This document shows, piece by piece, positions 7,668-23,153 of a stretch of 25,739 nt of DNA. The notes under the pieces were generated by a model. That model was not told where the DNA came from. It saw nothing but the letters and a program-made list of their open reading frames with translations, and did no database searches. A program made the translations under genes and the position numbers. The stretch comes from a candidate division WOR-3 bacterium (GTDB taxonomy: Bacteria; Hydrothermota; Hydrothermia; Hydrothermales; JAJRUZ01), in the NCBI GenBank assembly GCA_965649145.1, contig CBFGJR010000190.1:1-25739 (forward strand). The letters run 5' to 3'. The first letter of the stretch is position 1. Each line of letters opens with the position of its first letter.

Positions 7668-7720
7668 TTTTTGGATGGGAATAGAACCCACTTTGGGGTA
7701 TATTATAAAATCCCCAAAAA
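7668..7720 (-). promoter_or_regulatory. Structured tuf leader: T-loop hairpin (7675-7691) with alternative acceptor-like and upstream hairpin pairings, plus an embedded TATAAT box (7702-7707)
   Basis: Minus strand reads TTTTTGG GGATTTTATAATATACCCCAAA GTGGG TTCTATT CCCAT CCAAAAA TTTTTT. The pairings are read directly from the sequence; function is inferred. Confidence 0.6.
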
Positions 7721-7739: not shown

Positions 7740-9788
7740 TTAATATAAAAATTCTTTTTTTTCAAGTTTTAAAGGTCTAAATGCTTTAACTTTCATCCAC
7801 AAACCTGCTCTGCCCTTAGTATGAGACCTTAAAGCTGTAACATACCCAAAGGTATTTTTTAAGGGCATCTCAGCAATTACCTTTATCCAGTCTGAGTTCT
7901 CTAACATCCCCTTTTCCAGTATAGTGGCTTCCCTCTGCATTAAATCCTGAATAACATTTCCCAAATATTCCTGAGGAACCGTAATTTCCACATAGGAATA
8001 GGGCTCAAGTAAAATAGGTTCCGCACTTTTTATCACTTCCCTACCCGCTTCATGAATGGTTAATCTTAAGCCAAGAGGGGTTATTTTTTCAATATTATAA
8101 ACTTTTTTCAAATTCATTCTCACATTCATCATTGGATAACCCGCTATAATTCCAAAATCAAGAACTTCTTTCATTGAACTCATAGCAATCTCTCTTAATT
8201 CCTCAGAAAAATTTATACTACTATCTATAACTATCTCATTTCTCATAGCCTCCATTATAGGTAAAACTTCAAGTTGAACTTTTCCATACTGGTCTTCCCC
8301 TCCTATATTTTTTTTCACCTCCTTTACAAGTTCCGCTCTCTTTAATATACTCTCTCTATAATGTACCTGGGGTTTTAATGCTCTGAATTCTAATTTATAG
8401 TCCCTCTTCAATCTATCGAGAATGATCTCAAGATGCAGTTCACCCATTCCTGATATTATTATCTGACCTGACTCCTCATCTATTTTTAAACTGAAAGTGG
8501 GGTCCTCTTCAACCATCCATTTTAATCTTTCCTCAATTTTTTTCAAATCTTTGGCTGAAACAGGTTCTATTGCCTGTGAAACAACAGGTTCAGGAAAAAG
8601 CATCTCTTCGTATAATACTGGATGTTCAGAAGAACACAAAGTATCTCCTGTCCTTACATCCTTTGGCCCAACTATCCCAACTATTTCTCCACAAAGGGCT
8701 TCCTTTATTGCATTCCGTCTATTAGCATGAAGTCTGTATAACCTCTGAACTCTTATAAGTTCTTTTGTTCTTGGATTATAGATTTTTGAATTCTGGGTAA
8801 TTTTTCCTGAATATATTCTCAAATAGCAAAGTTTTCCCATATCTTCAAAGATTTGAACCTTAAATACAACTCCACTGAAATGATCCTCAGGTGAAGGATA
8901 TCTTGAAATTTCCTTACGGGTTAAAGGGTCAATTCCTCTAATTTCTCCCCTATCTATCGGAGAAGGTAAATATAGACATATCGCATCTATTAAAGGCTGA
9001 ATACCTTTATTTCTTAATGCAGAACCTATTAAGAGAGGCAAAAATCTTTTTCCAAACACACCTTTTCTTATAGCATTATTAATTTTAACTGGATCAGGAA
9101 TTCCTTTTTCATAATAATCCTCTGCAATACTTTCGTCAATTTCCGAAAGTATTATAATCATATCCTCATAAAATTTCTTTGCTTCTTCAGGCATCTCATC
9201 TATCTCATAAACTGAGAATTGAGTTCCTAATTCATCTTTATCCCATAAAATTTTTTTATAATCAACAAAATGGTATACACCTAAAAAAAAAGATTCAATT
9301 CCAACTGGCCATTCAAGTAAAAGAGGCTTTATATTAAATTTCTTTTCTATCTGATCCAGAACTCTTAAATGATTCGCACCCTGTCTATCCATTTTATTAA
9401 TAAAGGCAATTCTTGGAACATTAAACTTTTCAGCCTGTCTCCATATTGTTTCTGACTGGGGTTCAACACCTTCCACAGCAGAAAAAATTATAACAAGACC
9501 ATCAAGAATTCTCAAAGACCTTTCAACTTCCGCGGTAAAATCCACATGACCTGGAGTATCAACTATATGTATTAAATAATCCTTCCACTCACAAAAAGTA
9601 GCAGCTGCCTGGATTGTTATACCCCTTTCTTTTTCCTGTCTCATATAATCCATTGTCGCTGTCCCTTCATCTACTTCACCCATCCTATGTATCCTTTGAG
9701 TATAAAAAAGAATTCGTTCTGTTGTTGTAGTTTTCCCGGCATCTATGTGGGCAGCAAAACCAATATTCCTCAATTTTGTTAAATCCAT
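7740..9788 (-). CDS. fusA: Elongation factor G family protein in the str operon, with a strongly diverged domain IV
   Basis: AHIDAGKTTTTERIL, ERGITI, DTPGHVDF, NKMD, SGMGELHL; located between rpsG and tuf. Confidence 0.92.
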   Translation of the reverse strand: MDLTKLRNIGFAAHIDAGKTTTTERILFYTQRIHRMGEVDEGTATMDYMRQEKERGITIQAAATFCEWKDYLIHIVDTPGHVDFTAEVERSLRILDGLVIIFSAVEGVEPQSETIWRQAEKFNVPRIAFINKMDRQGANHLRVLDQIEKKFNIKPLLLEWPVGIESFFLGVYHFVDYKKILWDKDELGTQFSVYEIDEMPEEAKKFYEDMIIILSEIDESIAEDYYEKGIPDPVKINNAIRKGVFGKRFLPLLIGSALRNKGIQPLIDAICLYLPSPIDRGEIRGIDPLTRKEISRYPSPEDHFSGVVFKVQIFEDMGKLCYLRIYSGKITQNSKIYNPRTKELIRVQRLYRLHANRRNAIKEALCGEIVGIVGPKDVRTGDTLCSSEHPVLYEEMLFPEPVVSQAIEPVSAKDLKKIEERLKWMVEEDPTFSLKIDEESGQIIISGMGELHLEIILDRLKRDYKLEFRALKPQVHYRESILKRAELVKEVKKNIGGEDQYGKVQLEVLPIMEAMRNEIVIDSSINFSEELREIAMSSMKEVLDFGIIAGYPMMNVRMNLKKVYNIEKITPLGLRLTIHEAGREVIKSAEPILLEPYSYVEITVPQEYLGNVIQDLMQREATILEKGMLENSDWIKVIAEMPLKNTFGYVTALRSHTKGRAGLWMKVKAFRPLKLEKKEFLY

Positions 9789-9870: not shown

Positions 9871-10720
<850 letters not shown>

Positions 10721-10733
10721 TAAATGATAGTTT

Positions 10734-10766
10734 ATAAGATGGGGATTAGAACCCAATTTATCTTAT
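10734..10766 (-). promoter_or_regulatory. T-loop hairpin in the rpsL leader
   Basis: ATAAGAT-AAATT-GGG TTCTAAT CCC-C-ATCTTAT; ATAAGAT/ATCTTAT is a perfect 7-bp pair. Confidence 0.6.
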
Positions 10767-10768
10767 TA

Positions 10769-10797
10769 ATTATAATCTCAAAAATTAAAAAATTCAA
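10769..10797 (-). promoter_or_regulatory. Sigma70-type promoter of the str/S10 operon
   Basis: TTGAAT (10797-10792), 17 nt spacer, TATAAT (10774-10769). Confidence 0.75.
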
Positions 10798-10895
10798 ACT
10801 GCTCAAAAATATACAACTTTTAAAATCAAAAAGTTCAAATTCCTGAAAGTAAAAGAAAATAAGAAGCTTGAAAAGATACTTTTGAAAATAAATGT

Positions 10896-10924
10896 TTGAC
10901 TTAAGAATAAGAATTTCATAAAAT
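10896..10924 (+). promoter_or_regulatory. Sigma70-type promoter of the HEPN-MNT pair, likely giving a leaderless mRNA
   Basis: TTGACT (10896-10901), 17 nt spacer, TAAAAT (10919-10924); ATG follows 7 nt later at 10932 with no SD. Confidence 0.7.
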
Positions 10925-10931
10925 TTGAGTG

Positions 10932-11336
10932 ATGAACCCGAAAGAAATTGAATTTTTAAAACAGAGAAGTAAAGAATTTTATGAAAATGCCCTCAGTTTA
11001 TTTAAAGAAAAAAAATATAATCTCGCCGCTTTTAACATTGAACAATCTTGTCAACTTTATTTGAAATACTTAATAGGTAAAAAAATAGGGGAATGGCCAA
11101 AAACTCATTATTTGGACGAATTAATAGAGGAATTATCGGATGTTTATGAGAGAAAAGAAATTTTAGAATATTTTAAGAACAAGGAACTATTTTTCCAAAA
11201 TTTAACAGATGCTTATTTTACTTCAAGATATCATCCCAAAAATTTTACTCTAAATTTAACTCAACAACTAATCACAAATTATCAAAATTTTATCAAATTC
11301 TTAGAGGAGAGTTTAGGTGATAAATTTTTAAAATGA
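10932..11336 (+). CDS. HEPN domain protein (COG2250-like family common in thermophilic archaea)
   Basis: All-helical pattern with AAFNIEQSCQLYLK, PKTHYLDEL and AYFTSRY; ATGA overlap with a minimal nucleotidyltransferase gene. GTG 10929 is an alternative start. Confidence 0.85.
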   Translation: MNPKEIEFLKQRSKEFYENALSLFKEKKYNLAAFNIEQSCQLYLKYLIGKKIGEWPKTHYLDELIEELSDVYERKEILEYFKNKELFFQNLTDAYFTSRYHPKNFTLNLTQQLITNYQNFIKFLEESLGDKFLK

Positions 11337-11689
11337 AAACCTTAATTCAATTAAAAAAGAAAATTTGGCAGAAAAGAAAAAGATACTTTGAAAATTATCT
11401 TTTTTGGAGCAGAAAAATTAAACAAAAAACCATAGAAATTTTAGGAGAAGATGTTAAAGTTTTAGTTTTCGGCTCTATTGTTAAAGGAGAATGGGGACCA
11501 AACAGTGATATTGACATTCTAATTATTTCAGAAAAACTTTCTAAAAACTGGGAAGAAAATACCTGGATTAAAACAGAAATTAAAAAATCTATTGACCTTT
11601 TCTCTCCGTTTCAGATTCATTTAGCCACACCACAGGAATACCAAAACTGGTATCAAAAATTCATAAAAGGAGATTTTAAAGAGATTTAA
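11333..11689 (+). CDS. Minimal nucleotidyltransferase (MNT; Pol-beta superfamily)
   Basis: FGS-X10-DxD motif (FGSIVKGEWGPNSDIDILII); 118 aa; translationally coupled to the HEPN gene. Confidence 0.9.
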   Translation: MKTLIQLKKKIWQKRKRYFENYLFWSRKIKQKTIEILGEDVKVLVFGSIVKGEWGPNSDIDILIISEKLSKNWEENTWIKTEIKKSIDLFSPFQIHLATPQEYQNWYQKFIKGDFKEI

Positions 11690-11793: not shown

Positions 11794-11866
11794 GCCCGTG
11801 TAGCTCAGGCGGTAGAGCACTTCCTTGGTAAGGAAGAGGCCGCCGGTTCGAGTCCGGCCGCGGGCT
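11794..11866 (+). tRNA. tRNA-Thr(GGT); CCA end not encoded
   Basis: Cloverleaf: acceptor GCCCGTG/CGCGGGC, D arm GCTC/GAGC, anticodon arm CTTCC-TTGGTAA-GGAAG, T arm GCCGG-TTCGAGT-CCGGC, discriminator T followed by TTT. Confidence 0.97.
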
Positions 11867-17099: not shown

Positions 17100-17621
17100 T
17101 TGTATTTTATAAAAAGGGAGGAGTGGTTAAAAAAGGGTCTTACCGGTAGAATAAATAAGGTTTTAAAACATCCCTTCTATGTTATACATCACACAGCAAC
17201 ATTTCAGACGGAATATAAAGGAAATATAAACTATTTAGACAGGATGCATAAAAAAAGGGGATTTTTATTAATAGGTTATCACTTTATAATAGGGGTTGAT
17301 GGTAAAATTTTTGAGGGAAGGAAGATAGGAGAAGAGGGTGCTCATGTCAAAAGGTTCAATGATTCAATCGGTGTTGCGCTTATTGGAAATTTTGAAGAAG
17401 AAAATATTAAAAAGGAACAACTTGAATCACTTTTAAAACTCATGTTTTTTTTAAATAATAACTTACTTATTAACAGATTTACCTTTCATTTTCTTTTAAA
17501 TGAAAATACCTTATGTGGAAGATGGATTTATGGAAAAATAATAAAAAACAAAAATAAAAAATTTTTTAAATTTCCAGAGGATTTATTTTATAATTTATTG
17601 TGGGTTCAAACCCCTGAATAA
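17100..17621 (+). CDS. N-acetylmuramoyl-L-alanine amidase, Amidase_2/PGRP/T7-lysozyme type
   Basis: VIHHTA, IGYHFIIGVDGKIFEGR, GAHV, SIGVALIGNF, and later His (FHF) and Cys (TLCG) as candidate Zn ligands. TTG start is uncertain. Confidence 0.85.
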   Translation: MYFIKREEWLKKGLTGRINKVLKHPFYVIHHTATFQTEYKGNINYLDRMHKKRGFLLIGYHFIIGVDGKIFEGRKIGEEGAHVKRFNDSIGVALIGNFEEENIKKEQLESLLKLMFFLNNNLLINRFTFHFLLNENTLCGRWIYGKIIKNKNKKFFKFPEDLFYNLLWVQTPE

Positions 17622-17640: not shown

Positions 17641-18573
17641 ATGAAAGAAAAAGTCTATATAATTGGAGCCGGTTTTGTAGGAGCAGAGTGTGCTAACGAA
17701 CTTGCAAGAAAAGATTTCTGTGATATAGTTCTCATTGACATTCTTGAAGGAATTCCCCAGGGAAAATCCCTTGATATGACCCATGCAAACCCAATAAGAT
17801 ACATATCACCCAGTATAAAGGGACAGAATAATTATGATGGTATTGAAGAAGCAAAAGTTGTTGTTATAACAGCGGGTGTCCCAAGGAAGCCTGGAATGAC
17901 AAGGGAAGAATTGCTTGATACCAATTTCAATATTATGAAAAATGTAATTGGTGAAATAAAGAAAAAAAATAAAAATGCAATTTTGATAGTTGTTACAAAT
18001 CCCCTTGATGCTATGACCTATGCTGCCTATAAGTTATCTGGTTTTGAAAGGGAAAGGGTAATTGGAATGGCAGGTGTTCTTGATTCAACAAGATTCAGAG
18101 CTTTTCTTGCAATGGAACTTGGTGTTGCCTATGAAGATGTTTCAGCAATAACTCTTGGAACTCATGGAGATTTAATGGTTCCCTTACCAAAATATGCTAC
18201 CGTAGGGGGAATCCCAGTAAATCATCTTTTACCAAAGGAAAAGATAGATGCAATTGTTGATAGAACAAGGAAAGCAGGAACTGAGATAGTTTCCCTTTTA
18301 AAAACAGGAAGTGCTTATTATGCACCTGGTGTTTCAACAGCAATAATGGTGGAATCAATAATTAAGGATAAAAAAAGAGTTCTTTCGGCATCAGTTTTGT
18401 TAAAAGGAGAATACGGAATAAAAGATATATTTGTTGGAGTTCCTGTAGTTTTAGGTGAAAATGGTGTAGAAAAAGTTATTGAGATGAAACTTGAACCGGA
18501 TGAACTTAATGCCCTAAGGAAATCAGCTGAACATGTTAAAAAAATGCAGGAGGAAATAGATAGGAAGCTCTAA
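17641..18573 (+). CDS. mdh: Malate dehydrogenase (LDH-like type)
   Basis: IIGAGFVG Rossmann motif; ITAGVPRKPGMTREELL with the Arg that specifies malate over lactate; VTNPLD; LDSTRF; GTHGD. Confidence 0.95.
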   Translation: MKEKVYIIGAGFVGAECANELARKDFCDIVLIDILEGIPQGKSLDMTHANPIRYISPSIKGQNNYDGIEEAKVVVITAGVPRKPGMTREELLDTNFNIMKNVIGEIKKKNKNAILIVVTNPLDAMTYAAYKLSGFERERVIGMAGVLDSTRFRAFLAMELGVAYEDVSAITLGTHGDLMVPLPKYATVGGIPVNHLLPKEKIDAIVDRTRKAGTEIVSLLKTGSAYYAPGVSTAIMVESIIKDKKRVLSASVLLKGEYGIKDIFVGVPVVLGENGVEKVIEMKLEPDELNALRKSAEHVKKMQEEIDRKL

Positions 18574-21351: not shown

Positions 21352-23073
21352 TTATTCAGAAACAAGAAATTTGAATGTCCCTTCAGATGAACCCTTGTAT
21401 CTCAAGAAGTATACACCAGATTTCAAATTCTTAAACACAACCTCATTATTTCCAGAATTAACAAAAAGAGCCCTGGTATCAAGCTTCCTTCCGTTCTTAT
21501 CATAAAGTTCAAAAACCATTTTCCCATTGAAAGGTGAAATAAATCTCACTGTTCCATTTTTATAAATATTACCCACAAAACTGAGCCCCTTTCCTGTAAC
21601 AAAAGATTTTGAACCTTCCTCAACACCCATAAGAGGATAATAACCTGTGAGAATATAAGTCTGATCTATAGCGCCTAACCTGTATATACCATAATGAATA
21701 TCATAACCAGCCATTGCTCCATCCCATCCCCTTACAACATTAAAGAGAAGCCAAACATTAGAGCCTCCAAATACATGCTTTACCGTATGAACCTGATGCT
21801 CTATCTTGTCATCAGTAGGTTGATTAACCTCATCCCTTGTAATATTTATTGGCGCACTCCATGTCGCTCCTCCATCTGTTGAATACTTCACATAAATATC
21901 TGTCCAACCATACCTTGAACCATTCACATAATCAAAAGTATGATAATCAACATAGGTAACATAAAAAACATTATGAACATGGTCTATCGTTAATTCACAG
22001 TTCACAAACTGAATGTCCTCATCAGGGTCAATGACCGTATATGTCGCTGTTGGAGTCACAAGATATAAACCATTACCCGATACAAAAGTATCCGCTGTTC
22101 CAAAAATTATTGGATTAGTAAACAAACAGGTTGTTGAAATAAGAGCAACAGGTGTTGATGCATCTAAAAGCGCAAAATCCCAGTAGTTTGTCCACCAGAA
22201 TGCATCAACAATATGCGTTGAACCATCATAACCAAAAGTAAATGTATCAATAGGTATTTGTATATTAAGACCTATTCTTTGCCAGCTTACTCCATCATCA
22301 TATGAGACAAAAACAGAATCAGGTAAAACAAGGGCTGCATAAGTTCCATTAAGATAATCCATATTCCAAACTTCACCAGGATGACCAGGTATCACAGTTG
22401 CGGGAGGGTCTGGGTTAACAAACCCAAATTTCCACCACCATTGGGAGAAATAGTTATTATCAGCTCCTATCAACCAGTTCACATAGTTTGCAGGGTCATT
22501 TGAACCATGTGCAAAACTCTGAAAACCAACAAAAGGAGTAGTTTGATAATAATACTTTAAAATATTTCCCTGACCAAGGTCACCATTTGAAGGAACAGTT
22601 GCTATTGAAGCACCATAACCAGGAGAAACATTTGCATAACTCGCTATAAATGTATCACAGTCACCCAACCATGGACCAACCTGTGGATATCTACCGCCTC
22701 CATCATCATTATAAGGCCATACCCTATTCCATGTGGTACCACCATCTTTTGTAAATGTAAGAGCAAGCCATCCTGAACCTGGATAATTGGGATTATCAGA
22801 TAATCTTCTATATGTGAAAAATACACAGGATTGGTCGGGTGATGTATTTATAGGCTTTTCAGCAGTGTAAAGGGTTGAATACTGATTTGGCATTGTATCA
22901 ACATAGCTGATAGTCAATGTGGTGTAGGTGGGAGGAGACGCCAGATAGTAATCAAGGGTGCTTACAGCATCCTCATCTATAATCATATGAGTTCTTGCAG
23001 CAGGATTTATATAACCTGCAAGGAGGAATGTGGTTAAAAACATTCCTCCTAACATTTTTTTGAGGTAACTCAT
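21352..23073 (-). CDS. Secreted Asp-box/BNR (sialidase-like propeller) protein with a T9SS type-A-like C-terminal sorting domain
   Basis: Signal-peptide-like N-terminus; three Asp-boxes (TKDGGTTW, SYDDGVSW, STDGGATW); tail GVEE...ELYDKNGRKL...LKSGVYFLRY...KFLV. Confidence 0.7.
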   Translation of the reverse strand: MSYLKKMLGGMFLTTFLLAGYINPAARTHMIIDEDAVSTLDYYLASPPTYTTLTISYVDTMPNQYSTLYTAEKPINTSPDQSCVFFTYRRLSDNPNYPGSGWLALTFTKDGGTTWNRVWPYNDDGGGRYPQVGPWLGDCDTFIASYANVSPGYGASIATVPSNGDLGQGNILKYYYQTTPFVGFQSFAHGSNDPANYVNWLIGADNNYFSQWWWKFGFVNPDPPATVIPGHPGEVWNMDYLNGTYAALVLPDSVFVSYDDGVSWQRIGLNIQIPIDTFTFGYDGSTHIVDAFWWTNYWDFALLDASTPVALISTTCLFTNPIIFGTADTFVSGNGLYLVTPTATYTVIDPDEDIQFVNCELTIDHVHNVFYVTYVDYHTFDYVNGSRYGWTDIYVKYSTDGGATWSAPINITRDEVNQPTDDKIEHQVHTVKHVFGGSNVWLLFNVVRGWDGAMAGYDIHYGIYRLGAIDQTYILTGYYPLMGVEEGSKSFVTGKGLSFVGNIYKNGTVRFISPFNGKMVFELYDKNGRKLDTRALFVNSGNNEVVFKNLKSGVYFLRYKGSSEGTFKFLVSE

Positions 23074-23092: not shown

Positions 23093-23153
23093 AGGGAATT
23101 GAACCCTTTTTATTTTATGCTTAATTATAATCAATCATTCATTAATTCTTCAA
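23093..23153 (-). promoter_or_regulatory. Promoter plus T-loop hairpin upstream of the 573-aa gene
   Basis: TTGAAG (23153-23148), 18 nt spacer, TATAAT (23129-23124); AGGG TTCAATT CCCT (23107-23093); SD AAGGAGG. Confidence 0.6.

Follow-up and report, generated by a model that had tools for sequence, protein, structure and literature searches.

The leader of rpsL in this candidate division WOR-3 bacterium carries a short T-loop hairpin that looks like one of about 100 copies of a general leader signal rather than a private switch of rpsL and tuf. The T-loop element is present in about 5% of the genes of this genome and is tied more tightly to start codons than to promoters. Within the class, it is restricted to the family of this bacterium (hereafter f1), being found in all six f1 genomes and in none of the 58 others. 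We tentatively propose, at somewhat less than even confidence, that the element is an mRNA signal that promotes or positions translation initiation and is read through its T-loop. The initial annotation of this DNA had described the hairpin as a joint control element of rpsL and tuf with an extended basal stem. The present analysis adds the contrast between orthologous leaders of f1 (T-loop without a Shine-Dalgarno sequence, SD) and of its sister family f2 (SD without a T-loop), the class-wide count of the motif, and the rejection of both the basal stem and the specificity for rpsL and tuf.

Sequence features of the rpsL and tuf leaders

In Table 1, we list the leader features of the window, which denotes the whole stretch of 25,739 nucleotides that was analysed. 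The hairpin, its arms, the promoter, and the coordinates and spacings claimed for rpsL in the initial annotation were confirmed by direct reading. The rpsL promoter (TTGAAT-17-TATAAT, 10797-10769, minus strand) matches the consensus at 10 of 12 positions with a 17-nt spacer, and its transcription start site (TSS) is a prediction from the usual 7-nt distance after the -10 box. As also described before, the same T-loop motif precedes rpsL and tuf, the distance from the shared ...ATC to the ATG is exactly 17 nt in each gene, and direct reading reveals no SD in either of these 17-nt spacers. Across the entire rpsL spacer (10741-10721), no GGAG/GAGG-type word was found 4-18 nt before the start codon. 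Measured from the end of the 11-mer GGTTCNANNCC, the ATG follows after 22 nt in rpsL and 21 nt in tuf.

Table 1. Positions of the leader features in the window
Feature	Position	Strand	Remark
rpsL promoter, -35 hexamer TTGAAT	10792..10797	-	present in all six f1 genomes
rpsL promoter, -10 hexamer TATAAT	10769..10774	-	predicted TSS at about 10762
Proposed basal stem, 5' arm ATAAGAT	10760..10766	-	direct reading
T-loop hairpin core: GGG/CCC 3-bp stem, 7-nt loop TTCTAAT	10742..10754	-	
Proposed basal stem, 3' arm ATCTTAT	10734..10740	-	inside the spacer
A/U-rich spacer, hairpin to rpsL start codon	10721..10741	-	without SD
rpsL (S12) coding sequence	10340..10720	-	start ATG 10720-10718
tuf copy of the T-loop element, loop TTCTATT	7677..7689	-	20 nt before ATG 7656
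Copy before the Ldh/Mdh gene (17641-18573)	17602..17614	+	has SD
Copy before ORF 23073-21352	23094..23106	-	has SD; 17 nt after TATAAT

Translation from TTG 10756, which the initial annotation had named as an outcome that would overturn its reading, was rejected in favour of the ATG, given that the S12 relatives returned by a protein search, all from distant phyla because S12 is so highly conserved, match the ATG frame (MPTINQL) from its first residue. The S12 open frame is, furthermore, exactly 126 aa long in three relatives, which also argues against the TTG. No terminator-like structure (a stem rich in G+C, at least 5 bp long, with a T run behind it) was detected in 10650-10950, and no Rfam family was assigned to the rpsL leader at the gathering and E-value thresholds. 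ARAGORN and Rfam identified tRNA-Thr (11794-11866) as the sole tRNA of the window, and no cloverleaf was found around the T-arm look-alike of rpsL.

Two further observations concern the surroundings of these leaders. Divergent from rpsL, a HEPN-domain gene (PF05168) overlaps a nucleotidyltransferase-domain gene (PF01909) at 10929-11689 on the plus strand, a gene order that corresponds to the arrangement of HEPN/MNT toxin-antitoxin pairs. Upstream of tuf (7693-7717, minus strand), an inverted repeat TTGGGG ... CCCCAA flanks the TATAAT box that precedes the T-loop. In two relatives of the same genus, this repeat has longer arms with compensatory differences (CTGTGGGG ... CCCCACAG), and the repeat may form a structure in the transcript that reads through from fusA into tuf.

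Abundance, placement and anatomy of the element

The assembly comprises 1.78 Mb with 31% G+C in 267 contigs and an estimated contamination of 7.6%. Genes were called crudely as longest ORFs, and "intergenic" refers to the 16% of the genome that falls outside these calls. The element was defined as a sense-strand GGTTCNANNCC located 18-31 nt before a start codon and followed by an A/U-rich spacer, a definition that includes both rpsL and tuf. The strict 13-mer occurs 58 times in the genome, with 29 copies in tRNA T-arms and 29 outside tRNA genes, where about 0.3 would be expected from base composition; one of the latter is the tmRNA 3' end. Within the window, three strict copies compare with 0.22 expected. 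The relaxed motif was found 173 times outside tRNAs (3-45 for eight permuted controls), and its intergenic copies number 108 (2-11 for four permuted controls).

The intergenic copies are strongly associated with gene starts. A co-oriented start was observed within 150 nt of 102 of the 108 copies, compared with 36% at random intergenic sites, and 65 of them (60%) have a start codon at 18-24 nt, compared with 2.6% at random sites and strands. The spacing between hairpin and start shows a sharp lower bound at 18 nt and a peak near 21 nt; in 55 genes the first base of the motif is located at -35 to -31 relative to the start codon. Perfect TATAAT boxes lie 6-32 nt upstream in 34 copies (median about 14), which is a broad distance. 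Additionally, 33 of the 96 well-placed leader copies are located within 30 nt after a co-oriented ORF.

The genes behind the element include dnaK, the Ldh/Mdh gene, several genes of small ribosomal proteins (L35, S21 and L32, assigned by their initial codons) and many whose products appear to be secreted. Four leader copies are found in the window, before tuf, rpsL, the Ldh/Mdh gene and the ORF at 23073-21352, whose 573-aa product (21352-23073, minus strand) matched no Pfam family above the cut-off. A relaxed-motif match at 9460-9470 (plus strand), antisense in the EF-G gene, has no start codon downstream and is probably a chance hit of the kind predicted by the controls. On contigs C78 (140-152) and C220 (9979-9991), a nearly identical stretch of about 60 nt forms the end of a reading frame. 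A T-loop copy and a T run come next, and no ORF lies within the following 150 nt; this likeness may reflect a duplicated gene end or assembly redundancy.

The anatomy of the element was described from the 96 well-placed copies, which were selected with loop positions 54, 55, 56 and 58 fixed, so numbered as in tRNA. In this set, the loop consensus is T T C N A N N, and the tRNA invariants U54, U55, C56 and A58 are kept. Position 57 is mostly A (76 copies; T 14, C 4, G 2), position 59 is A in 48 copies and T in 34, and position 60 is T in 71 and C in 20. When A58 was replaced by T or positions 54-56 were permuted, the counts dropped to control level (4-7 intergenic copies, compared with 108), and this fall of the controls altered at 56 or 58 indicates that C56 and A58 are required. 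Positions 57, 59 and 60 vary. The spacer contains 50-67% A at -18 to -11, has hardly any G or C except where an SD occurs, and favours A at -3.

The stem consists of two invariant G-C pairs and one covarying pair. This third pair is Watson-Crick in 65 of the 96 copies (G-C in 35, A-T in 26), compared with 36.3 +/- 4.4 in permutations, and compensatory changes at the same pair were observed among the orthologues. The fourth pair is at chance level (47 versus 42.0 +/- 3.7), and pairs 4 and 5 form in about half of 14 aligned copies. Since G-T (4 copies) is not favoured over A-C (9 copies) at the third pair, covariation alone does not prove an RNA helix. The same lack of G-T excess would be in keeping with a site in DNA, namely an operator with a fixed direction or a site near the promoter, recognised by a DNA-binding protein specific to the family, as would the many copies lying just downstream of a -10 box. 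Such a site is nevertheless very unlikely: the motif is strictly gene-oriented and placed by the start codon rather than the promoter, copies also turn up in the narrow intervals behind co-oriented ORFs, the half-sites of the loop form no palindrome, and the positions that are fixed or free match those of the RNA T-loop fold.

Among the closest known structures is the tRNA T-arm, with which the element shares the 7-nt loop (TTCTAAT in rpsL), the bases U54, U55, C56 and A58, and the G53-C61 closing pair. TTCAAAT is the most frequent loop both in the leaders and among the tRNA T-loops of this genome. The leader element differs from the T-arm in having three supported stem pairs instead of a 5-bp T-stem, in its position outside tRNAs at a fixed distance from start codons, and in the identity of position 57, where G is rare and a pyrimidine is present in 18 of the 96 copies, compared with 0 of the 46 tRNAs of the genome.

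Basal stem, rpsL-tuf likeness and leaders in relatives

The extended 7-bp basal stem, which the initial annotation had described in the rpsL leader, is neither above chance nor conserved, and a functional role for it is not supported. The core rpsL hairpin alone has a folding energy of -2.2 kcal/mol at 37 C and the whole hairpin -7.2 kcal/mol (z = -1.57), and 14 of 200 shuffled sequences fold equally well. The T-loop copies are flanked by A-rich sequence 5' of the hairpin and by T-rich sequence 3' of it, and a perfect outer helix of at least 7 bp was observed in 24 of the 96 copies, with 15.9 expected from shuffled flanks. No 7-bp basal stem is present in any of the five orthologous rpsL leaders. 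Furthermore, with the TSS predicted at about 10762, transcription would begin inside the 5' arm of this stem and leave four of the arm's seven bases out of the RNA.

The near-identity of the rpsL and tuf copies over 17-18 nt, pointed out previously, turned out to be ordinary. The two differ by an edit distance of 4 over 19 nt, and 973 of 4560 copy pairs (21%) are as close or closer. In the orthologous rpsL and tuf leaders, the shared ATC flank and T57 are not kept, and position 57 is A or G.

The relatives were grouped into f1, which comprises six genomes in two genera, and f2, its sister family. All six rpsL leaders of f1 retain the promoter, the T-loop hairpin and an SD-less spacer, and all six tuf leaders contain the T-loop without an SD. 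The outer stem pair of the f1 rpsL hairpins varies between G-C, A-U accompanied by further A-U pairs, and U-A, and one genome has two pairs only. In f2, by contrast, no T-loop was found, and all readable leaders (three of rpsL, four of tuf) contain an SD-like word, of the GGGGTG type before rpsL and a full AAGGAGGTG-type SD before tuf. The comparison of leaders in related genomes that the initial annotation had suggested thus upheld the motif and the missing SD in f1; the fixed spacing and the ATC flank did not hold, and the distance to the ATG ranges from 21 to 29 nt across the orthologous rpsL and tuf leaders. Among the six rpsL orthologues, the distance from promoter to motif (13-17 nt) varies less than that from motif to ATG (22-29 nt). 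At the level of whole genomes, the motif followed by an ATG was counted 98-174 times per f1 genome and 3-33 times in the 58 other genomes of the class, the latter being approximately the level expected from tRNAs and chance.

These observations bear on the coordinated control of rpsL and tuf that had been suggested previously. An operator private to the two genes, bound by S7, S1, EF-Tu or a similar protein and including the basal stem, would account for two features that both leaders share, the 17-nt gap and a loop with T57, which is a rarer variant. We consider it already largely refuted and its probability to be slight, as the likeness of the two copies is ordinary, position 57 is A or G in the orthologues, which also lack the shared ATC flank and show the variable spacings given above, and the basal stem is not conserved. 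An autoregulatory element of a ribosomal protein or EF-Tu would be confined to the regulated operon or operons and would imitate the rRNA or tRNA site of that protein; the present element was found in about 100 unrelated leaders, which argues against a feedback operator of the S7 or EF-Tu type. The analysis shows that the rpsL and tuf leaders of this genome are not gene-specific riboregulators. The related suggestion that one factor acts on both genes fares better in part: since rpsL and tuf carry the same element, the same reader probably acts on both, although it would not be specific to them.

Initiation without SD and possible readers of the T-loop

The lineage initiates translation largely without an SD. 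Using a GGAG/GAGG/AAGGA test, an SD was detected at 27% of the unambiguous starts and at most 38% of all starts of this genome, and the same test detected one in 39% of the motif-bearing leaders. The frequency is not lower in motif genes, so the element is not simply a substitute for the SD. Among the 96 copies, the 59 without an SD have a median spacing of 21 nt, with 49 at 18-24 nt, and the 37 with an SD have a median of 25 nt, with the hairpin ending at least 10 nt before the SD. The anti-SD at the 16S 3' end is canonical in three relatives; this genome has no assembled 16S rRNA. A global loss of the SD in f1 was considered and rejected, as the excess of GGAGG-N4-10-ATG is alike in f1 and f2.

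The organism is probably a thermophile, judged by the G+C content of its stable RNAs: 62-64% for 16S rRNA in relatives and 63% for the tRNAs of this genome, compared with 31% for the genome. A high G+C content of rRNA and tRNA is linked to high growth temperature. In a heat-adapted organism, a 3-bp stem of the stability given above would be too weak on its own, and we infer that something binds the loop. In the mechanism that we tentatively favour, the element would act in the mRNA, a T-loop-recognising component (either a T-arm-binding protein or a part of the ribosome) would hold or read the loop, and the 30S subunit would be presented with the start codon by way of the unstructured spacer of fixed length. 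The element would thereby serve as an initiation enhancer or positioning signal, either in the absence of an SD (the case of rpsL and tuf) or together with one. The tight start-codon spacing and the contrast with f2, which has the SD and no T-loop, fit a role in SD-independent initiation. To that extent the earlier suggestion of such initiation for rpsL and tuf is sustained, but the absence of an SD is in itself ordinary in this genome. Against the initiation reading stand several observations: the SD is not reduced in motif genes, strong SD patterns are in similar excess in f1 and f2, codon adaptation shows no enrichment in motif genes over others (median 0.713 versus 0.720), and among the rpsL orthologues the distance from promoter to motif is kept better than that to the start codon. 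The lack of a G-T preference at the third pair and of family-specific extra copies of TruB, TrmI or a U5-methyltransferase also counts against it.

A more specific version is that the hairpin is a lineage-general signal for start-site selection, docking on the ribosome or an initiation factor by T-loop or elbow mimicry and bringing into the P site, without SD pairing, the start codon that lies 21 nt downstream. We regard this as unlikely; if true, bacteria would offer a natural example in which tRNA mimicry starts translation. Two other candidates were rejected. In the 16S rRNA of a relative, the best pairing site for the motif lies near the 5' end, at positions 10-20, with 10 of 11 pairs. This match was judged a coincidence, as variation at loop positions 57, 59 and 60 would disrupt the pairing and as, in known 30S structures, this segment lies buried as part of helix 1 and the central pseudoknot. 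A reading of the motif as a -35-like box of leaderless genes was set aside: judged from the geometry, the ATG would have to lie about 5 nt farther from the motif, and leaders are evident in the copies that have an SD.

The loop might instead be a substrate mimic, a hairpin that T-arm enzymes (TruB for Psi55, a U54 methyltransferase, TrmI for m1A58) bind or modify, tuning mRNA stability or translation through the modification itself or through the bound enzyme as a chaperone. This explanation is compatible with the initiation reading, and we give it a low probability. TruB, GCD14/TrmI and a U5-methyltransferase are all encoded in this genome, and the conserved positions of the element correspond to the GUUCNANNC stem-loop code of TRUB1/Pus4, as given in the available portion of PMC5340967. 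According to the available portion of PMC13492117, 2 bp is the minimum stem for TRUB1, and short stem-loops are substrates of TruB; the rpsL hairpin has both the GUUCNANNC sequence and such a stem. Family-specific extra copies of the three enzymes were not found, each being single-copy in f1 and also in f2, which is without the motif. The modification alone would not explain the fixed start-codon distance, and the pyrimidine at position 57 in 18 copies, including rpsL and tuf, sets the element apart from the tRNAs of the genome.

Hairpins near the 5' end are also known as stabilisers, for example in E. coli ompA and B. subtilis aprE, where they are stable and have no required loop sequence. 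The element could likewise be a 5'-end or processing element, either a cap against 5'-dependent RNases or a cleavage mark giving a leader of fixed length, in which case the spacing to the start would merely be the closest position that does not block the ribosome. The TATAAT boxes 6-32 nt upstream of 34 copies place many hairpins a few bases from the predicted 5' end, the hairpin of the six rpsL orthologues begins 13-17 nt after the -10 box, and the spacing has its sharp lower bound at 18 nt. The likeness to the known stabilisers ends at this position, as the element here is weak and defined by its loop: any stable hairpin would protect, yet the T-loop invariants are strict and the stem has 3 bp. 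One third of the copies directly follow an upstream co-oriented ORF, and the spacing peaks near 21 nt instead of merely piling up at the lower bound. We therefore consider the 5'-end explanation improbable, though less so than the DNA site discussed above.

We know of no SD-independent initiation system in which a conserved T-loop-like hairpin takes part, and none was encountered in the literature searched. A full-text literature search likewise returned no description of a start-anchored T-loop leader element in bacteria. T-box leaders and the thrS operator are bacterial leaders that mimic tRNA. The yjdF riboswitch is another and resembles the present case in that a piece of tRNA architecture in a bacterial leader affects translation (available portion of PMC9142559). 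Such leaders are large, gene-specific structured RNAs, whereas the element described here is an 11-13-nt module before about 100 unrelated genes. Unstructured, A/U-rich leaders that start translation independently of an SD (S1-dependent enhancers; Bacteroidetes-type, PMC7797042, as far as its available text goes) share with this lineage the SD-less majority, the canonical anti-SD and the A-rich spacer. Eukaryotic mRNA sites of TRUB1/Pus4 follow the same GUUCNANNC sequence-plus-stem-loop code and tolerate short stems (PMC5340967, PMC13492117), and T-loop-like m1A sites occur in eukaryotic mRNAs (bioRxiv 10.1101/202747). The available portions of these three sources do not report such sites as a placed leader element; the element here is bacterial, confined to leaders, located about 21 nt before starts and present at about 5% of genes.

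For the question of how bacteria choose starts without an SD, an element at about 5% of the starts of a genome offers a concrete handle. The four invariant loop bases, the adjustable spacer and the natural contrast with f2 at rpsL and tuf provide the points at which it can be approached. If tRNA-handling enzymes or the ribosome read the loop, tRNA recognition would be linked to the selection of mRNAs in bacteria.
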